A stretch of 41,822 nucleotides of DNA from Escherichia phage vB-Eco-KMB41: sequence record OR539216.1, one strand, 5' to 3'. The notes under the pieces are model-generated. The model saw only the letters and a program-made list of their open reading frames with translations, had not been told where the DNA came from and did no database searches. How positions within the stretch are numbered: position 1 is the first letter of the stretch; each line of letters opens with the position of its first letter. A program made the translations under genes and the position numbers. Shown here in pieces: positions 2,821 through 41,822 of this stretch.

Positions 2821-3624
2821 TGCTGCCGGGTTGACCGTGACCGTACAGACGGCGGAGGTAACGGTGTTCGGCGCGACGGTGTTCGAACTGGTGGCAATAC
2901 AGCGGTATTGACCAGCGTCCCCGGTCGCCGGGCTGGCAACGTTCAGCGTTGCGGCGGTAGCCCCGGAGATGTTCGTCCAGGAGGTCCCGCCGTTCGTGGA
3001 CTTCTGCCACTGGTAGGAGTACGGCGCGAGGCCCGTCGTGGAGTTTACCGCGATCGACAAGCTGGCTGCGGTCCCCACGGTCCAGGTGGCGGTCGCCGGG
3101 AGGTTGGTCGAGAGAGCGATCGCTGGCTTGGTACGCTCGCGCAAGCTCTCGGCGGTCTGGCCCGCGCTGTCGGTTACGCGGCAAAAATAATCGCCGTTGT
3201 TCCCTGCTGCGTACCCGGTGATCGTATACGTCGGGGAGTTCGTCCCCACTGGGTTGTCGGTGCTGGATGCCCGGCGAAACCATGCGTAAGTATACGGCGG
3301 GACGCCACCACTCACGGCGACCGTGAACGTCTTGTTACTTCCCAGTGGGATATAACTCGCCCCGGCGTCGTTGGCGTTGTTACCCGGTAAATTTTGGGTA
3401 AACACGATCGGCGGGACCAGCGCCGGATCCAGTTCGATGTAAAACATTTTCGTGGGGTCCAGGTTGGACGGTTCACTGTCCAGCCAGATCACATCCTTTT
3501 GATGGACCTTGCTCGGATCAAGGATTCGCGTCACTTTCCAGCCCATCAGGTCGGCGCGGCGGTAACGATGCCAATAAGCCATAATTTTGTCCTCGTGAAA
3601 TTGTGCGGTATACTGCCCCGGCAT
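2818..3624 (-). CDS. Ig-like domain protein (two tandem Ig-like repeats)
   Basis: Two ~80-aa repeats sharing PPYTYAW/APYSYQW and GDYFC/GQYRC motifs typical of Ig-like folds; N-terminal ~90 aa unrelated. Alternative start at Met15 (about 3582) has a better SD (GAGGA). Confidence 0.75.
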   Translation of the reverse strand: MPGQYTAQFHEDKIMAYWHRYRRADLMGWKVTRILDPSKVHQKDVIWLDSEPSNLDPTKMFYIELDPALVPPIVFTQNLPGNNANDAGASYIPLGSNKTFTVAVSGGVPPYTYAWFRRASSTDNPVGTNSPTYTITGYAAGNNGDYFCRVTDSAGQTAESLRERTKPAIALSTNLPATATWTVGTAASLSIAVNSTTGLAPYSYQWQKSTNGGTSWTNISGATAATLNVASPATGDAGQYRCIATSSNTVAPNTVTSAVCTVTVNPAA

Positions 3625-4443: not shown

Positions 4444-4651
4444 AAGCCCCCCGGATAAGCTCGCGGGCGTCGCTCTCTGCCTGAGCCGCTTCGCGCTTTA
4501 AAGCTGCTGTAGCGTGAGGCCCTGCCGCGTACATCTTGAGACGGTTGCGGAGGATCATCGCCACCTCGATCAGAATGTGCGCCTGTTTGAGTAACATCCA
4601 GTTAATCACGACCGCTTTATTTGTTTTGGTCTGAATCAGTGCCTTTTCCAT
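4424..4651 (-). CDS. hypothetical protein (75 aa)
   Basis: ORF with AAGGAG SD 6 nt upstream of ATG. Confidence 0.55.
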   Translation of the reverse strand: MEKALIQTKTNKAVVINWMLLKQAHILIEVAMILRNRLKMYAAGPHATAALKREAAQAESDARELIRGAYGYGAD

Positions 4652-4652
4652 C

Positions 4653-4976
4653 TTAAGCTCCTTTGCTTTCCAGTACGTCGATCACTTTGGTGTAGAAAAC
4701 TTCTTTCGCGCTGAGGGCGGTCAGGCACTCCTCGCGGGTCCGCTTCTTCTCAATACACCAGTAGCAACGGCACAAAGCGGCGCGGAAATAATCCAGTTGC
4801 GGGTCGCTCTTATAATGCGCCTCCAGCTTCTGATTAAGCTCGGCCTCCATCATGGCCTTAAGACCTTTCAGTGACGCCTTACTGGTGCGGATCAGGGTGG
4901 CGTATTTGTGGGCGAAGGCGCGGACCTCTTTCGCTTCCGCCGGGGTGTATTTGATTGTGTTCGGTACTGTAGCCAT
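4653..4976 (-). CDS. hypothetical protein (107 aa)
   Basis: Start set at MATVPN (GAGGA SD upstream); the longer ORF form to 5039 would run through the promoter-like element. Confidence 0.65.
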   Translation of the reverse strand: MATVPNTIKYTPAEAKEVRAFAHKYATLIRTSKASLKGLKAMMEAELNQKLEAHYKSDPQLDYFRAALCRCYWCIEKKRTREECLTALSAKEVFYTKVIDVLESKGA

Positions 4977-7412: not shown

Positions 7413-7438
7413 AGCCCCCGCGCCGGGGCTTTTTTTTT
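7413..7438 (+). terminator. Plus-sense intrinsic terminator-like hairpin (AGCCCC-loop-GGGGCT + T8) inside a minus-strand operon
   Basis: 6-bp GC stem followed by T8 on the plus strand only; abuts the primase stop codon. Confidence 0.45.
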
Positions 7439-8255
7439 ACCCGAACGCGCCAGCCAGATCTCCCCCTATGCAAGCCCTCCCCGTCCTGTCGTAGCCGTAC
7501 AGGAAAACCTCGTCCGGGTCAGTGTAAACGAACCGGATCTCCCGATCGCCGTCGTAGATCGCCGAAGCCTGGACGGCGTTCATAGGCCGGAACGTCAGCC
7601 AGACCTCCGCCTCCCCTCGCGCCGCCACGTTCACGGCATGAGCCGGATCCGCCACGAGATACACCGGAGCGTCCGGCGCTGGGTGGATCAGTCCGACCGC
7701 GCCCCACGTTGGCCCGCCAGCGGCAAACACCACGGACCTGTCGGAGCCGATCTTCGCAACGTTGCACCACGGCCCCAGGGATCCCCCCAGTGGACGAGCG
7801 CATGGAACATACAGGAAGCCGTCCCGCATCGCGCCTTTAGCCATGACTCGCTCGACGTCCTCCGGGGAGAGTTCCCAGTCCTGCGCGGGCTTGTCCTGCT
7901 GCCGGGCATACTTGCGGGCCTCTTTGACGATCGTCTCCCGCTTCTCCGGGGTGAGTCCGCCTATCCAGTCGCCCAGGTCGTTGATCGCCTCGTTGAACGG
8001 CTGCGATCGGCTGGTCATAAACCAAAACATGCCATCACGAGCGCCACCGCACGAGCCGGAACAGTACCCGAAGCCCTCGGCCTTTTTCGTCTGCTGCTTA
8101 TGGCCCCAGCGAAAGCGATCGGTCCCGCCACAGATCGGGCATGGCTGGTGATTGCCGTTAAACGCCTTGCGGTCCCATCCACAGAGATCGAGGAGCGCCT
8201 GTTCCCATTTGCCGGGCATCGCCGCGAGAACGTCCTCTTTTTTATAAATTGCCAT
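7437..8255 (-). CDS. DNA primase (zinc-binding)
   Basis: N-terminal CPICGG...DRFRW zinc-ribbon typical of phage/plasmid primases plus a second Cys cluster; divergent from the helicase gene. Confidence 0.7.
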   Translation of the reverse strand: MAIYKKEDVLAAMPGKWEQALLDLCGWDRKAFNGNHQPCPICGGTDRFRWGHKQQTKKAEGFGYCSGSCGGARDGMFWFMTSRSQPFNEAINDLGDWIGGLTPEKRETIVKEARKYARQQDKPAQDWELSPEDVERVMAKGAMRDGFLYVPCARPLGGSLGPWCNVAKIGSDRSVVFAAGGPTWGAVGLIHPAPDAPVYLVADPAHAVNVAARGEAEVWLTFRPMNAVQASAIYDGDREIRFVYTDPDEVFLYGYDRTGRACIGGDLAGAFG

Positions 8256-8320
8256 CTTGCCCTCCGTTTCTTTCGCGGTTACTATAAATCATGCTTTAGT
8301 GATATTACAAGGGATAAACA

Positions 8321-10360
8321 ATGTTAATGACATTGGAAAAACAGATCGAGGCACTCGACCGGGACGCCATACTCCGCGCCCTCGGAGACATGCCTGTTAC
8401 ACCATACGATCACCAGTTCGTAGCATATGAGGCTTGCGCGGAGGCCATCCGTCGCTATCCTGGCCCGGTCATTGTGGACGCCGCCGTGAGTGCGGGTAAA
8501 ACCATCATGATCTCCATGCTGGCCCGCCGAATCAGGGATATGGGATTCCCCGCCATGATCCTGTCCCGTCAGGGGGAGATCATCGATCAGGACTTCGAGG
8601 AGTTGCGGAACTTCGGCGTAAACTCCTCGATCTACTGCGCCAGCCTGGGACGCAAGTCGGCACACTTCCCGATCGTCGTCGGCTCCGAGGGTACAGTGAT
8701 CGGAGGACTCCGCCCAGGTCAGGCCCTCGCCCATTACGCGCCGCTGTTCCTGCTGATCGATGAATGCCATCACGTCAACATTGAGGACCTGATCCGCTCA
8801 CAGGAGCGCATAGTCCCGGAGTACCTGCGCGACGATAAGGGGGAGATCATCCTTGACGGCTTCGGGGATCCGACCGTTATCGGAGAGCATAAGGGCGAGA
8901 CATACGAGGAGATGGTCGAGGCGGGCCGCGCCAGCTATACGATCATTATCCGCACGTTGCAGCAACGCGCCCGCGAGGTGTACGGGAAGGAACTCCGCAT
9001 TATCGGCTACACCGGGACGCCATACCGTGGCGTAGAGTCGATCATCCAGCCAGACCTCGAACAGCCCGGATTCTGGCGTAAAAAGGTCTGCGAGATCTCG
9101 ACGGAATACCTCGTAAGCGTCGGCGCTGTCGTTCCGACTCACTTCGGCCTGTCCAATCTCCACTATAACCTCGACCAGTGGCGATCGTCCGGCGAGGATG
9201 GCGTGAAGGAGTTCACGGACGCCGAAATGGACGCCATGCAAAAGGCGATCCTCAAAGAGAAAAAACTCACTCACGAGATCATGGCGGAGGTCTACGCCAT
9301 CGCACAGCACAGGAACGGCGTATTAGTGACGTGTGCGGGCGTGAGACACTGCAAACAGGCGGCGGAGGCCCTTCCCCCTGGTACGCCTTACGCCATCATC
9401 ACGGACGACACGACGGGCAAGAAGCGCATGGACATTTTGCGCCGCGCCAATACCGGGGAGATCAAGTTCATATTCCAGGTTAACGCCCTAACGACTGGCG
9501 TTAACGTCCCGTTCTGGGACACGTCGGTGATCCTGCGGAAGATAGGCTCCCTCACGCTCCTAACCCAGCTTTTAGGCCGTGGGATGCGAATCCTTAAGCC
9601 GTTCCATATCGCCGCCGGGGTGACGAAAGAGGATCACCTGGTGCTCGACTATGCCGGGACGCTGGACGAACTCGGATCCCTGTATTTCTCTCCGCTGCTG
9701 GAGGCATATCAGCACAGCGCCGACGAGAGCAAGGGGGAATTAGAGTTAGACTGTCCGAAGTGTCGCAAGGCGGGCCACCCTACGCTAAACGGCAAACACG
9801 CGCGACGCTGCCGCTACGTGGATCCAGACACTGGCGAACGCTGCGAACACTTTTTCCAGTTCATCACCTGCGACGACTGGAAGGACGCCAGCGGGCGGAA
9901 AGTGGTCCAGAAGGGATGCGGCGCACAAAACGACATCGTAGCGCGGATCTGTCGCTGCTGCGGGAACTCACTCGTAGATCCGAACAAGAACTTAAGCCGG
10001 ACGACCTACTCGCGGGACGACTACTACAACGTGAGGGACTTCCGCATGGAATTAGCGCGAGGGACTGGGGGGATCGCCTTCCGGTACGAACTGGAGAAGG
10101 ACGGGGACCAGTTTGTGGCGTGGCAAGTATTCTGGCCCGGTAGCGATAGCCCACAGGCGAAAAAGGAATGGCTCCATAATGGCATCCTTAAGCACGTACT
10201 GGACGGCAAGAAGCGGGCGGACATTAAGAAGCTACGGACGCCCCAGGAGGTCCTCGCGTATGCGCCTTACTTCATGGCTCCACTGAAAGTTACCCACCGG
10301 AAGATCGGCAAGGGTAAAGACGTTATATCAAACAAAATCTTTATGAATGAGGGTTTCTAA
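8321..10360 (+). CDS. superfamily-2 DNA helicase (DEAH-type) with C-terminal Cys-rich zinc-finger domain
   Basis: Walker A SAGKT, DEAH-like LLIDECHH, helicase C-terminal motifs (TGVNVP, LLGRGMR); C-terminal CPKC...CRCC clusters. Confidence 0.85.
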   Translation: MLMTLEKQIEALDRDAILRALGDMPVTPYDHQFVAYEACAEAIRRYPGPVIVDAAVSAGKTIMISMLARRIRDMGFPAMILSRQGEIIDQDFEELRNFGVNSSIYCASLGRKSAHFPIVVGSEGTVIGGLRPGQALAHYAPLFLLIDECHHVNIEDLIRSQERIVPEYLRDDKGEIILDGFGDPTVIGEHKGETYEEMVEAGRASYTIIIRTLQQRAREVYGKELRIIGYTGTPYRGVESIIQPDLEQPGFWRKKVCEISTEYLVSVGAVVPTHFGLSNLHYNLDQWRSSGEDGVKEFTDAEMDAMQKAILKEKKLTHEIMAEVYAIAQHRNGVLVTCAGVRHCKQAAEALPPGTPYAIITDDTTGKKRMDILRRANTGEIKFIFQVNALTTGVNVPFWDTSVILRKIGSLTLLTQLLGRGMRILKPFHIAAGVTKEDHLVLDYAGTLDELGSLYFSPLLEAYQHSADESKGELELDCPKCRKAGHPTLNGKHARRCRYVDPDTGERCEHFFQFITCDDWKDASGRKVVQKGCGAQNDIVARICRCCGNSLVDPNKNLSRTTYSRDDYYNVRDFRMELARGTGGIAFRYELEKDGDQFVAWQVFWPGSDSPQAKKEWLHNGILKHVLDGKKRADIKKLRTPQEVLAYAPYFMAPLKVTHRKIGKGKDVISNKIFMNEGF

Positions 10361-24716: not shown

Positions 24717-24761
24717 GGTAGATCCTCGTTATTGGGTGATGTTCGGGGAACAGTATAAGCG

Positions 24762-24790
24762 ATAAAAAAAGGGGAGCCAATGGCTCCCCC
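24762..24790 (-). terminator. Rho-independent terminator after coat gene (minus sense: GGGGGAGCC-loop-GGCTCCCC + T7)
   Basis: Long GC stem followed by TTTTTTT on the minus strand just downstream of the coat stop. Confidence 0.75.
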
Positions 24791-38207: not shown

Positions 38208-38508
38208 CAGCGCCCCCTTTCGGCCCCAGTTCCTGGTCGATAAAGTCCTGGGCCATCTCGTCCGCGCTGTCGTGGCGTCCGTCCTGCTCGGCCTGGCGAA
38301 TGGCGTCGATCTGCTTCTGGCGCTGATCAGCCATGAAGCCCTCGACCGCCTGGTGTGCGAGCGCCGTCGCCTGGTTGTGGCTGTAGCCCTGTTTGCGGAA
38401 GCGGTTGAACGCGTTCTCCAGCAGTGAGGCGCGTTGGTTCGGGCCTACATACATACGCGAGATATCCGCGACGGCTGATTTCTTCTCTGCATTGTCTTTC
38501 ATCATCAT
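38200..38508 (-). CDS. hypothetical protein (102 aa)
   Basis: ORF with helical, charged composition. Confidence 0.55.
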   Translation of the reverse strand: MMMKDNAEKKSAVADISRMYVGPNQRASLLENAFNRFRKQGYSHNQATALAHQAVEGFMADQRQKQIDAIRQAEQDGRHDSADEMAQDFIDQELGPKGGADA

Positions 38509-38538
38509 CTCCTCGTTTCTTCGTCGTCGTGACGGGCC

Positions 38539-38727
38539 TCACATCAGGCCCAGCATGTTAAACAGGATCGCCGCGAGTGATATCACGATCGCGCCGATGG
38601 TTGTCGCTACCATCAGGAAGTAATTCCACAATCCGAAGCGCTCGATCCAGTCGTTCGATCGTACTGGTTGAGTGTTCCCGATCGGTGTCCGTCTGGGGAA
38701 TAAAATCACGTTGTTATTGTCGCTCAA
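38539..38727 (-). CDS. small membrane protein (62 aa)
   Basis: C-terminal TM segment (FLMVATTIGAIVISLAAILF); apparent TTG start preceded by AAAGGTGA SD. Confidence 0.45.
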   Translation of the reverse strand: MSDNNNVILFPRRTPIGNTQPVRSNDWIERFGLWNYFLMVATTIGAIVISLAAILFNMLGLM

Positions 38728-38749
38728 ACTATATCACCTTTCAATGATT

Positions 38750-38980
38750 AAATCATGGTTACGTGAGGTTTTCATTAAGCCCTCAAAAAGTGCCAGCAAA
38801 TGGCCCCGGTTACATCATTTAAAATCTGTCACCAAATGTTAGTTAAGTGATTGAATTAAATCCGGTTACATTGCAGGTTTCATTGTCTCAAAAAATGTAA
38901 CTTGCGCTTAACTCGGTTACGGTTACAGGTTACATCTCTCTCTATATAGAGAGAGTGTAACTGTCACCGATGTAACCGGG
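38750..38980. repeat. Iteron-like array: at least 8 GGTTAC/GTAACC hexamers (three in tandem at about 38915..38933), TGTCACC motifs and a perfect 20-bp palindrome CTCTCTCTATATAGAGAGAG (about 38936..38955)
   Basis: Read directly; 255-bp non-coding gap immediately downstream of the AAA_25 ATPase gene; hexamer density far above the roughly 1 per 2 kb expected by chance. Confidence 0.7.
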
Positions 38981-38982
38981 CC

Positions 38983-40638
38983 TTAAAAGTCGTTCAGATC
39001 GTCGTCCTGATCCTCCGCTTTTGAGGATGGTTTCCAGTCCGTCGGGAGTGGCTTCTGATCGCGGATTCCACCCAGGAGCGGAGCCGCTTCTTTCGTGGCG
39101 GTCAGCGTCTCGTCTCCGGCGACCTTGATGATCCCCATCGTGTTAGTGGCGTGAAGGAATGCGCGACGGAATGCCGTCTTGTCGATCTGCGGGTCCGCGC
39201 TGTTCCGCGCCCACTCACTGAGCGCCGCCTTTGTCAGCTTCGGAGTGCGGCCTCTGCGCTTGCTGTTGTACTCGTGGACGAAGTTCACCAGTCGGATCGC
39301 GTTCTCCTCCTGCTGGCTGCGCTTCGGCCCCTCGTCGGCCTTCTCCTCCTTGTCGCCAGTCGGTACAGCCTCCAGCGCGTTAATGACGACCAGCGTCCCC
39401 AGGTTGTCGCCAATCTCCCACGCTGCCGGGTTCTGCTGCGCTTCGGGGCGTACTGGCTTCATGCGGGCCATTGCCTCGCGCTTCATCTTGACCAGTTCAG
39501 GCGGGAGCGGGACGGATTGCGTCCGCATGGCGCGAGGAGGGAGGAGCGCACAGCCTTTCGCCTTCGTGTGCTCAATGACAAAAAGCTCCTTGTCCTTGCA
39601 CTTCTTCACCATGATCTCGAATCCGGCGTTTGCCCGGAGGGTTGACGCGCCACGAGCGCCGCGCTCGGTGTCCTTCCCGGTGTGGTGGATCACCATCACG
39701 GCACAGTTGAGCATTTCCGCCAGCTTCGCCGCGTTCGCCATCAGGATCGCCGCCACGTTGTTGTCGTTCTCGTTGAAGTCCTGCCCGCCTACCCATTCGA
39801 TCACCTTGCCGTCCGCGTCACGCTTCGCGGTCTGGCCCACCTTCTGGCCCGCGCTGTTGGCGCTGTAGGTATCAATGACCACGAGGGCCGGTGCGTTCTC
39901 CTCAATGCCGAAGAACGGGGAGGAGAGGACCTTCCCGGCGAAGCGCTGGAGGATCTCCGCGTTATGGAGGGGGACCTGTTCGCCGATGATAAACAGGTTA
40001 TTCAGATCCTTGTTGCCGTTGCGCTTGTACTTCCATCCCGCGTAACGTTCACGGACGCCGCTCGCATCCTCCGGCGCGAAGTACAGGACGGATCCCTGTC
40101 GGACCGGAAGCCCGGCGAAGTCGATCCCGGTGGCGACACAAATCGCCATCTGTAACGCGCAAAAAGTCTTTTTAGCGCCCGACTCGCCGACCAGGAAGCC
40201 CACGGAGCGCTCCGGGACCAGCGACTGGATCACATAGTTAACGGGGGTGATTTTGTTCCCGGCGCGTAACTTGTCCAGGAACTCGTCCGGCTGGTCTGCC
40301 AGCAGTTCGGCGATCGCCTTCTTGTCCTTCTCGCGCTGGTCCTCTGTCGTCTCGCTGCGTGGCTTCGCGACGGGCTTCTGGTTCTCGTCCAGTACGAGGT
40401 CCCACTGGTGATCGTCCTCATTGTCGCCGAACGCGTAAAGCTCCATCTCCGCCAGTGATAGGCCCTGCTCTGCTGCCTGGTCTGCCGCGATCGCCATCTG
40501 CTGGTCCATGTCCGCCTCTGTCGGCTCCGGCGCTGCGTTCAGCCATTCCGGGACGGGTTCCAGACGAGCCTCGCCTGGGAGGATCTGGTCCAGTAGTTCC
40601 TCGCGGGTCGGTTCCTGCTGTTCTTCGTCGTGCATCAT
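38983..40638 (-). CDS. RecA-fold ATPase of the AAA_25/RepA-like type (putative replication initiator or helicase), 551 aa
   Basis: Walker A GESGAKKT, Walker B LVVIDTYS, downstream VMVIHHTGKD motif typical of RepA-like ATPases; acidic N-terminal ~130 aa; flanked on both sides by GGTTAC repeat clusters. Confidence 0.75.
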   Translation of the reverse strand: MMHDEEQQEPTREELLDQILPGEARLEPVPEWLNAAPEPTEADMDQQMAIAADQAAEQGLSLAEMELYAFGDNEDDHQWDLVLDENQKPVAKPRSETTEDQREKDKKAIAELLADQPDEFLDKLRAGNKITPVNYVIQSLVPERSVGFLVGESGAKKTFCALQMAICVATGIDFAGLPVRQGSVLYFAPEDASGVRERYAGWKYKRNGNKDLNNLFIIGEQVPLHNAEILQRFAGKVLSSPFFGIEENAPALVVIDTYSANSAGQKVGQTAKRDADGKVIEWVGGQDFNENDNNVAAILMANAAKLAEMLNCAVMVIHHTGKDTERGARGASTLRANAGFEIMVKKCKDKELFVIEHTKAKGCALLPPRAMRTQSVPLPPELVKMKREAMARMKPVRPEAQQNPAAWEIGDNLGTLVVINALEAVPTGDKEEKADEGPKRSQQEENAIRLVNFVHEYNSKRRGRTPKLTKAALSEWARNSADPQIDKTAFRRAFLHATNTMGIIKVAGDETLTATKEAAPLLGGIRDQKPLPTDWKPSSKAEDQDDDLNDF

Positions 40639-40664
40639 TGTTTAATCACCTCATGGTTACATTA

Positions 40665-40701
40665 CGGGAGACAATGTAACCGCTATTTGTCACCGCGTCA
40701 A
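40665..40701 (-). promoter_or_regulatory. Sigma70-like promoter (TTGACG-17 bp-TACATT) overlapped by inverted repeat GGTTACATT-N9-AATGTAACC
   Basis: Read on minus strand: -35 TTGACG, 17-bp spacer, -10 TACATT, then AGGTGA SD and ATG of the ATPase; the 9-bp-arm palindrome covers the -10 and start region. Confidence 0.5.
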
Positions 40702-40779
40702 TTCAGCGCCAGTAAAGAAAACTCTTTACATCACGGTTACGTTACCTTAAGGTGATAGCCGAACACGACGGAGGTCATT

Positions 40780-41217
40780 ATGTCACTGTTTGACGATGAA
40801 GCGCCACGCGCCCCACTTCGGGCCAACGTAGCGCCACGTAAGACGCCACAGGAGAGACTCCTGGAGATACTGGAGAAGGTCCGCTCCACCGATCCGTCCA
40901 TCCATGACGCGATCGAACAGGGGAGAATGGATCCTTATCTGCCGACGGTCGAGACGCGGAACGCTTTTCTAACTCTGCGCCCGTCGGAGCAAATATTCGC
41001 GGCGTTCTGGGACTGCCCCGGCGTCGATCGTAAGAAGTTAATGGACCTATGCCGACACGCCGGAAAGATGGAGCGAGCCGGAAAATTACGGGACCTTAAG
41101 GTGGACCGCTCGAAGCTGGCGACCACTGAAAGCGGGATCCCCCCAGGCGTCGAGATTGGCCCGGAGTTGGCCCTCGCCGCACTACAATGCAAGCAAGCCA
41201 TGAGGAAAGAGAGATGA
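40780..41217 (+). CDS. hypothetical protein (145 aa)
   Basis: ORF with GGAGG SD 7 nt upstream, first gene of the rightward unit leaving the divergent control region; the overlapping minus-strand ORF 40935..41798 is rejected. Confidence 0.65.
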   Translation: MSLFDDEAPRAPLRANVAPRKTPQERLLEILEKVRSTDPSIHDAIEQGRMDPYLPTVETRNAFLTLRPSEQIFAAFWDCPGVDRKKLMDLCRHAGKMERAGKLRDLKVDRSKLATTESGIPPGVEIGPELALAALQCKQAMRKER

Positions 41218-41822
41218 TCAGATATATCGCAGTAACCGAAGAAGCGGACCAGGACGAGAGCATGGCGTCCCACATCCCGGAGAGTCAGATCGAGCGCATC
41301 GATCGCGCTGCTAATGGTAAGGCTATCCTGATCGTTCGTGAATATCGCGAGAAGTGCCGCGAAGATTCCGAGTGTTACGGTCGGAAGGAATGGCGGATCG
41401 ATGGCTACGAGTCGCAAGAGCGCTACAGCGTGATGAAGTTCGACGACCTGATCGCCTGGCTGAATGGCATCCCGCCGGAGCCGATGGTGGTTGACTTCGA
41501 TCGCCTGTCGCCGGAGGAGCGCGAGAACGTCATGGACAATCTGGTGGCGGCGCGTCATGCCCTGCGCAACGTGAACAGTAAGACCGTACTCCAGCCAGCG
41601 CCAGCGCATCACGTCGGCCTCGACTCGGACGTGTGGGCCGTGGTCAAACTGCTGGAGGCTCGCGAGTGGGCCGAACATTGCACGACGACCGAACTCGGCG
41701 GACGTCTGGAGTCGGAGATCACGAAGCTGGTCGGGACTGAGAACGAAACGGCGGGCAAGCTCAAACGGGCGGAGCAATTGCTGGCGGAGATCCATCACGC
41801 GGTCAATAACGACGGCGGGCTT
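41214..41822 (+). CDS. hypothetical protein, 3'-truncated at window end (203 codons here; continues in frame at 1..66 if the molecule is circular)
   Basis: ATGA overlap with 40780..41217; open to the last base; frame closes exactly at the window end and resumes at position 1 to a TAG at 64..66. Confidence 0.6.
   Translation, partial: MIRYIAVTEEADQDESMASHIPESQIERIDRAANGKAILIVREYREKCREDSECYGRKEWRIDGYESQERYSVMKFDDLIAWLNGIPPEPMVVDFDRLSPEERENVMDNLVAARHALRNVNSKTVLQPAPAHHVGLDSDVWAVVKLLEAREWAEHCTTTELGGRLESEITKLVGTENETAGKLKRAEQLLAEIHHAVNNDGGL

Follow-up and report, generated by a model that had tools for sequence, protein, structure and literature searches.

The genome of Escherichia phage vB-Eco-KMB41 (sequence record OR539216.1), genus Murrayvirus, was analyzed here as one window of 41,822 nucleotides (nt), which is the whole genome. 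The subject is a gap of 141 bp (40639-40779) between a leftward gene for a RepA-like ATPase and a rightward gene for a protein of 145 amino acids. By the annotation of relatives, this gap is the point where two transcription arms diverge. The leftward arm runs from the ATPase through about 15 small genes to the terminase and structural genes; the rightward arm runs from the 145-amino acid protein through small genes to the holin, endolysin, and spanin. The gap carries a predicted leftward promoter (P_L) for the ATPase gene. Because P_L is covered by the same 7-9 bp site that fills the likely replication origin at the other end of that gene, it is probable that the helicase switches its own gene off. 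The features on which this argument rests are listed here by position.

38728..38982, no strand assigned: origin-like array of 12 GGTTACA-type sites, in the stretch that runs from the ATPase stop to the next gene
38983..40638, minus strand: gene for the 551-amino acid RepA-like ATPase (Pfam AAA_25), a putative self-loading initiator-helicase
39097..39315, minus strand: codons of a C-terminal winged helix (amino acids 442-514), predicted from structure modeling, the proposed reader of the sites
40647..40652, minus strand: ATPase ribosome-binding site GAGGTG, 8 nt upstream of the ATG at 40638
40655..40663, plus strand: site 4, GGTTACATT, left arm of a palindrome, inverted with respect to sites 1 and 2; relatives keep an inverted site there
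40667..40673, plus strand: site 3, GGAGACA, degenerate (2 mismatches), around the predicted transcription start
40673..40678, minus strand: -10 element of P_L, TACATT, inside site 2, at a spacer of exactly 17 nt
40673..40681, minus strand: site 2, GGTTACATT in the ATPase sense, right arm of the palindrome, overlapping the -10 element; its position is conserved in the alignment
40688..40694, minus strand: site 1, GGTGACA in the ATPase sense (TGTCACC on the plus strand), opening the P_L spacer directly after the -35 element
40696..40701, minus strand: -35 element of P_L, TTGACG (TTGAC[G/C] or TTTACA in 13 of 15 relatives)

P_L (TTGACG-17-TACATT) matches the sigma70 consensus at 9 of 12 positions, with its -10 element ending 34 nt upstream of the ATG. 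It is the sole promoter-like match within 40400-41000, where 0.2 would be expected, and would start transcription near 40666. The functional site lies over it in three to four copies, two direct and one or two inverted. Sites 4 and 2 form the inverted repeat (GGTTACATT at 40655-40663, AATGTAACC at 40673-40681), whose 9-nt arms are 100% complementary and 9 nt apart. Site 4, which reads AATGTAACC in the ATPase sense, would occupy approximately +5 to +13 of the predicted leader, with its center 20 bp from site 2.

The initial annotation placed this 9-bp-arm palindrome at the heart of an operator-controlled divergent switch. The elements that it quoted (TTGACG-17-TACATT, the inverted repeat, TGTCACC, and GGTTACG/CGTTACC) all lie where it put them, and the palindrome is certainly present. 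As a functional unit, however, the palindrome does not stand. What relatives conserve is a site of 7-9 bp, (c)GGTTACAT(t/c), rather than a palindrome with 9-bp arms; in L006, a 96%-identical relative, the right arm has already changed to AACGTAACC. The counterpart of the degenerate site 3 is, in several relatives, a good inverted site (for example, GGTTACAATGAAACC in P0019 and ATTAACGC in P0009).

Statistics point the same way. Perfect inverted repeats with arms of at least 9 nt and loops of at most 20 nt number 6 in the genome, compared with 3.7 +/- 2.0 in simulations, and the idea that the palindrome is significant by itself was rejected on this count. The motif GGTTACA, on the other hand, has 8 matches in 41.8 kb versus 1.82 expected, a number that none of 100 shuffles reaches. 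Seven of these eight copies fall within approximately 400 bp (about 1% of the genome), in the array at 38728-38982 and in the gap at 40639-40779.

Two further kinds of repeat were seen. Four other perfect inverted repeats of the same class are centered near 8613, 9492, 10849, and 24780, the last coinciding with a promoter-like TTGGCT-17-TATACT (24780..24752). Further, an 18-nt direct repeat recurs in the gap at a spacing of 80 nt (ACCTCATGGTTACATTAC at 40648-40665, ACATCACGGTTACGTTAC at 40728-40745). On the ATPase strand it reads as a site followed by C(A/G)TGA(G/T)G, with a third copy at approximately 38750-38770, before the next gene; the pattern recurs beside ribosome-binding sites in relatives.

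Relatives were gathered by a protein homology search, followed by collection of the contigs that encode the proteins found; a scan of viral contigs with a single protein had given one close relative only. The comparison set comprises 15 Murrayvirus-type loci, with ATPase identities from 58% to 96%. Among GenBank phages, Lumpael, sortregn, sortsyn, IME_EC2, and ST231 come nearest over this region, with nucleotide identities of about 77-79%, and megablast finds no plasmid relatives.

The sigma70-type promoter that the initial annotation assigned to the ATPase gene recurs across this set. In 13 of the 15 loci, the sigma70-like match that scores best on the ATPase strand lies at the homologous position with a spacer of exactly 17 nt, and the -10 element (TAnnnT) ends 33-43 nt from the ATG in 13 of 15. 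Among relatives, the -10 element appears as TACATT, TAACAT, TACACT, TACAAT, TACGCT, or TAAGTT. It therefore keeps T1, A2, and T6, with inner bases that vary along with the overlapping site, which is the pattern expected from dual constraint.

The arrangement of the sites is equally regular. In every relative, the P_L spacer opens with the motif peculiar to that phage, a second site holds the -10 element, and one or more inverted sites precede the ribosome-binding site. The motif itself is that of the lineage:

GGTTACA: KMB41, L006, P0003
CGTTACA: P0005
GGTAACA: Lumpael, P0012, P0015, P0016
AGTAACA: P0007
ATAACAT: ST231, P0021
CGTTAAC: IME_EC2
GCGTTAA: P0009
GGTTTCA: P0019, P0022

Within each lineage, one motif is common to the promoter gap and the downstream array. 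When the repeated 7-mers of each array are compared with the gap of the same phage, the diagonal sum is 68 versus a permutation mean of 25.8 (p~5e-5). In 12 of 13 phages, the phage's own motif stands two to three times without mismatch in the 75 nt upstream of the ATPase ATG, a stretch from which the motifs of other phages are almost absent. Thus, the overlap of an operator with the ATPase promoter, claimed in the initial annotation from one genome, finds support phage by phage.

The same two-cluster design is found at a much greater distance. In L019, a ChibiTotoro-like, Serratia-phage-like contig whose ATPase is 35% identical, the motif is AGGGAT(G), with 10 copies versus 2.9 expected. Four copies lie over TTGCAA-17-TAATAT upstream of the ATPase gene, a match of 8 of 12 that was made by eye and falls under the scan threshold; the promoter scan itself reported only TTGCAA-17-TATATT, on the opposite strand. 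Five copies lie around a long polypyrimidine/polypurine palindrome directly after the ATPase gene. The two clusters occupy 2900-3005 and 4660-4855 of the contig, and an open reading frame of 99 amino acids that crosses the array (4612-4911) is probably spurious.

The array of KMB41 has a core that begins 6 nt past the ATPase stop codon. Here, three sites (38915-38934) are followed by the palindrome CTCTCTCTATATAGAGAGAG (38936-38955) and by three inverted sites (38956-38977). The palindrome is perfect, 20 bp in length, and polypurine/polypyrimidine with a TATA center; the core sites are spaced by 6-9 bp and occur in both orientations. All relatives have the same layout, with lineage-specific motifs. 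From this sequence organization, we infer that the array at 38728-38982 is the likely replication origin. The "iteron" label of the initial annotation is right about the family, the sites of the gap and of the array being the same. It is nevertheless a loose term for sites of 7-9 bp in inverted arrays around a palindrome, a layout that is closer to that of the pathogenicity islands of Staphylococcus aureus (SaPIs).

Other features of the arrays deserve mention. In all relatives, the palindrome is polypurine/polypyrimidine with a TATA or TAAA center, and its two arms change together in sequence. The arrays of Lumpael, sortregn, IME_EC2, and sortsyn include a GC hairpin followed by a T-run, CGGGGGTG(A/G)CCCCCG ATTTTT, oriented against the flanking genes; this is absent in KMB41. 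GC skew was considered as a way to locate the origin and proved uninformative, as it follows gene orientation.

What protein might read these sites? The ATPase itself offers a candidate. Pfam finds AAA_25 at residues 127-324 (E 1.5e-25, 90.4 bits versus a cut-off of 27), and in a model of the full-length protein, residues 135-392 form a RecA-fold core. Its best structural matches (RSF1010 RepA, RadA/Rad51, DnaB) all have the RecA fold. The best among solved structures is RSF1010 RepA (1g8y, E 2.6e-9, TM 0.68), which is also the only PDB match at the level of sequence (phmmer E 1e-3). The N-terminal 128 amino acids are modeled, with low to moderate confidence, as mostly helical with a small beta-hairpin. 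Beyond the core, a disordered linker leads to the predicted winged helix, whose recognition helix would cover approximately amino acids 487-500 (DKTAFRRAFLHATN in KMB41). The segment around its third helix varies more than any other part of the ATPase, which is conserved elsewhere.

The ATPase has no primase domain (Toprim/DnaG, prim-pol, or zinc-binding) in Pfam, despite "primase" labels in GenBank, and relatives have a separate gene annotated as "putative DNA primase." Nor does Pfam find a Rep_3 domain; AAA_25 is its only hit, and the protein has a single winged helix after the helicase core.

Database names for this protein are misleading. The KMB41 ATPase is called a "cobalt-zinc-cadmium resistance protein," and its relatives "DNA primase," "primase/helicase," or hypothetical. 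In the IME_EC2 record, the gene (L001 5967-7654) is split into IME_EC2_58/59 by a frameshift within the winged-helix codons; in the 92%-similar sortsyn, it is intact. The C-terminal tail (amino acids 516-551; 38986-39090) is disordered and acidic and ends in DDLNDF, with a final Phe that is invariant in 23 homologs. By analogy with the protein-recruiting tails of SSB and of T7 gp4/gp2.5, which it resembles, this tail may recruit the host polymerase or a primase.

The case for the winged helix as the reader rests on covariation. KMB41 and P0003 have both recognition helix and motif in common. P0009 and IME_EC2 have the helix RTDFFHAFEHATK and a CGTTAA motif in common, with N-termini that are 28% identical. 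P0007 and ST231 likewise have in common MK(L/M)TRAFDHATK and a TAACA-type motif. IME_EC2 and ST231 represent a swap made by nature. Their ATPases are 97% identical in the N-terminus and 96% in the core, and only 42% in helices 2-3 of the winged helix (the recognition-helix sequence of ST231, the counterpart of DKTAFRRAFLHATN in KMB41, is GMKMTRAFDHATK); the motif changes fully, from CGTTAAC to ATAACAT. In a sliding comparison of the two DNAs, identity dips to 43-67% at the promoter gap, 53-65% at the winged-helix codons, and 42-53% at the array, between flanks of 88-100%. The dip at the promoter gap is 1.4 kb from the winged-helix codons, with nearly identical sequence between. Because the winged-helix codons and the array are adjacent, only this promoter cluster, 1.4 kb away, is independent.

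Mantel tests generalize this. When the identity of the operator is compared with that of 30-amino acid windows along the ATPase, the correlation peaks at amino acids 431-500 (r 0.55-0.64) and is much lower in the core. For the winged helix, r=0.65 (p~5e-5), and the partial correlation given the adjacent N-terminus is r=0.58 at the same p; for the helicase core, r=0.24. That the operator belongs to the same repeat family as the array, as initially claimed, thus finds its support both in the recurrence of each array's motif at the promoter and in the shift of that motif with the recognition helix.

From these patterns we infer that the ATPase binds the sites, and that binding represses. It seems to us fairly probable that this RepA-type protein is a self-loading initiator-helicase, bound to its origin on the one hand and repressing P_L, the promoter of its gene, on the other. 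In such a model, the winged helix would read the lineage-specific 7-9 bp site, (c)GGTTACAT(t/c) in its KMB41 version. It would dock on the inverted arrays to either side of the palindrome (38936-38955); two helicase rings would be loaded there, and the TATA center would open. Early in infection, P_L would be free. As the protein accumulates, it would fill the sites over P_L (the first opening the spacer, the next including the -10 element, and one or two inverted over the start and leader), RNA polymerase would be blocked, and synthesis of the protein would be limited by the protein itself.

Several points weigh against this. Genome-wide, consensus sigma70-like matches number 16 compared with about 13 in shuffles, which is no enrichment; the case for a promoter is thus one of position and conservation. 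The hexamers of P_L reach, of course, only 9 of 12. Early and structural genes follow in the leftward arm over about 24 kb, so that full repression of P_L would need other promoters. Co-inheritance of the winged-helix codons with the origin array that they adjoin could reflect linkage alone, and is weak evidence. The genomes of IME_EC2 and ST231 are mosaic in about ten other segments. KMB41 has an account at the level of its genome only (PMC11162368); published Murrayvirus work consists of genome descriptions, and nothing was found there on origins, promoters, binding, transcription starts, or replication. Finally, the sites over P_L could serve replication instead of repression, and the sites in the rightward half of the gap do not covary with the winged helix. 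The features of that half are these.

40724..40734, plus strand: invariant block CTTTACATCAC, identical in 14 of 14 aligned phages, with the -35 element TTTACA (40725-40730) of a rightward promoter (P_R)
40735..40746, plus strand: variant sites GGTTACG and CGTTACC (the opposite strand reads GGTAACG), which overlap each other within the P_R spacer
40748..40753, plus strand: -10 element of P_R, TAAGGT, 17 nt past TTTACA, matching at 3 of 6 positions and under the scan threshold
40780..41217, plus strand: first rightward gene, 145 amino acids, phrog_30497, with the ribosome-binding site GGAGG at 40770-40774

The pattern TTTACA-16/17-[T/A]AnnnT recurs in 13 of 15 relatives at the equivalent place, and the 17-nt spacer of KMB41 (40731-40747) contains GGTTACGTTACC. 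The P_R half of the gap has exact copies of the phage's own motif in no phage, only variants with one or two mismatches, and the Mantel profile of the P_R spacer is flat, without a peak at the winged helix of the ATPase. The P_R sites as co-varying operators are therefore unsupported. Conservation supports P_R well, as it does P_L, with a predicted transcription start near 40760; control of P_R by the sites would be hypothetical. Of the divergent switch of the initial annotation, only the leftward side covaries. As the P_R sites are one- to two-mismatch variants without winged-helix covariation, a switch that acts on both transcripts stays hypothetical.

The most serious rival explanation makes the sites over P_L a second replication element, which would pair or loop with the origin, in the manner of plasmid handcuffing, or load helicase a second time; their overlap with the promoter would then be incidental. 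The site family and converging orientation do match the core of the origin, and the clusters flank the gene as the iteron sets of P1 and F flank repA and repE, and as ori and crr are arranged in P4. Such an element would also be compatible with autorepression. The P_L cluster, however, lacks the polypurine/polypyrimidine palindrome with a TATA center that marks the origin core of every phage. Further, the positions of the sites with respect to the -35 and -10 elements are fixed in 15 of 15 loci, as they also are in the relative with 35% identity; such a fixed register would be expected under selection for overlap with the promoter, and suggests that the overlap matters. A replication role with incidental overlap is judged unlikely, if still worth keeping in mind.

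Less probable still is that a different DNA-binding protein of the phage reads the sites, leaving the ATPase as helicase only. Dedicated repressors at divergent promoters are, of course, common among phages, and the candidates here would be a small early protein, an XRE-type regulator, or the 145-amino acid product. IME_EC2 and ST231 differ also in several small early genes; they are a near-isogenic pair only locally, and the pair alone leaves room for another reader. The 145-amino acid protein does not track the motif (r=0.27 between this neighbor and the operator). Its Lumpael version is, by eye in the alignment, close to those of KMB41 and P0003 though the motifs differ, and it has no Pfam family; on these grounds it was rejected as the reader. 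The XRE gene lies within a block that is 89% identical between phages of different motif. The best correlate along the ATPase is the recognition region of the winged helix, in several independent pairs of lineages, and the sites adjoin the ATPase gene on both sides even in the 35%-identical relative. Because the compared genomes are mosaic elsewhere, another protein swapped together with the motif keeps a small place among the explanations; we regard it as unlikely.

That the palindrome is an RNA leader hairpin acting near the ribosome-binding site on translation or stability, or a chance repeat without function, is very improbable: a transcribed palindrome could give a 9-bp stem, and inverted repeats of this size occur near chance frequency genome-wide, but only one arm is transcribed from the predicted start, relatives keep the sites and not the complementarity of a stem, motif clustering and covariation are far beyond chance, and an RNA element was rejected outright on a leader fold no more stable than shuffles (z=0.35) and no Rfam match at E<=1 in 38400-41300.

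Other genes may be noted briefly. The replication genes of relatives include, besides the separate putative primase, a DEAD-box helicase, a clamp-like protein, RecE/RecT-like proteins, and SSB; their annotation includes no DNA polymerase gene. A second divergent gap of KMB41 (8256-8320) separates the putative primase (minus strand, 7437-8255) from the DEAD-box helicase (plus strand, 8321-10360). A promoter-like TTGTAA-18-TATAGT (8310..8281) lies within this gap, and GGTTACA sites are absent there. A small ParE_like gene (PF24732) is kept in the rightward operon shortly before the holin, in relatives L007-L016 at about 2.1-2.8 kb in.

Replication and gene control in Murrayvirus have so far been undescribed. 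The preferred reading, in which the ATPase binds its origin and represses P_L, supplies four elements: a likely origin, an initiator-helicase, a domain that would read the sites, and, at the divergence of the two arms, an operator for autoregulation. Nature also provides the variants. At least eight motif types were seen, each paired to a recognition helix of its own, in some cases within proteins that otherwise hardly differ. This series is material for the study of how winged helices change specificity, and of how phage replicons avoid cross-talk.

A bolder proposal, which we offer tentatively, is that an exchangeable "replicon specificity cassette" is made up of the winged helix with its two clusters of sites, and that Murrayvirus-like phages diversify and swap it. 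Beyond any role in repression, the promoter cluster would pair with the origin across the gene, and thereby couple transcription of the initiator to the firing of the origin. If this were so, co-infecting relatives could neither titrate nor hijack each other's initiator, a situation that may be likened to plasmid incompatibility groups or to the immunity regions of lambdoid phages. At least eight natural pairs of helix and motif on one scaffold would then constitute a readable code for winged-helix recognition.

One of the closest known systems is that of the SaPIs. There, Rep combines helicase and initiator in one protein through a C-terminal winged helix, and the origin is made of short repeats of 5-6 nt in 6-12 copies immediately downstream of rep (PMC9371898). 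The repeats are divided equally between the two flanks of an AT-rich center and face in opposite directions, with a specificity that depends on the element (PMC9371898). The KMB41 array at 38728-38982 fits this layout, as does the predicted winged helix after the helicase core. A second cluster of sites that covers the promoter of the gene, as in KMB41, is not mentioned in the SaPI paper (PMC9371898). SaPI Rep, further, has an AAA+ motor of the SF3/MCM-like kind, whereas the KMB41 ATPase is of the RecA-fold, AAA_25/RSF1010-RepA type; because its motor has the RecA fold and not AAA+, the KMB41 system is an analog of the SaPI system, not a member. KMB41 is also a virulent-looking enterobacterial podophage rather than a satellite island, and the center of its array is a polypurine/polypyrimidine palindrome. 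We know of no report of a promoter-covering second site cluster in SaPI systems.

For the autoregulation, a close parallel is with iteron plasmids. Initiators such as RepE of mini-F, RepA of P1 (with incC and incA), and RepA of pPS10 bind the repeats of their origins, and also repress their own promoters through an overlapping inverted repeat built from part of the iteron sequence. Their rep genes are flanked by clusters of repeats. KMB41 likewise has sites of the origin family overlapping the promoter of the putative initiator, in clusters that flank the gene. Unlike these plasmids, however, it has no Rep_3 (WH1-WH2) initiator, the initiator being the helicase itself, and its sites are 7-9 bp in inverted arrays instead of direct iterons of 17-22 bp.

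Viral helicases offer parallels as well. The SV40 large T antigen and the papillomavirus E1 protein are hexameric helicases with their own origin-binding domains, which load as double hexamers on short head-to-head repeats around a central palindrome; T antigen represses its own early promoter through sites in the origin. Unlike the KMB41 ATPase, these have SF3 AAA+ motors and an N-terminal origin-binding domain of a different fold, and the SV40 origin and promoter overlap, whereas KMB41 has two clusters 1.7 kb apart. The alpha protein of phage P4 combines several replication functions, and its C-terminal winged helix recognizes octamer repeats in two separate clusters, ori and crr. Alpha, however, joins primase and SF3 helicase domains, whereas the KMB41 ATPase has no primase domain and a separate putative primase gene; and crr is not known to be a promoter operator, unlike the second cluster of KMB41, which overlaps a promoter.

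In structure, the core of the KMB41 ATPase is closest to RSF1010 RepA (1g8y), both being Pfam AAA_25 proteins. RSF1010 uses a separate iteron-binding initiator, RepC, and a separate primase, RepB', and its RepA is not known to have a domain that reads DNA sequence. We propose that KMB41 places the design of SaPI Rep (a self-loading helicase with a winged helix and short inverted repeats) on a RecA-fold motor, and adds to it an autoregulation in the style of plasmids.

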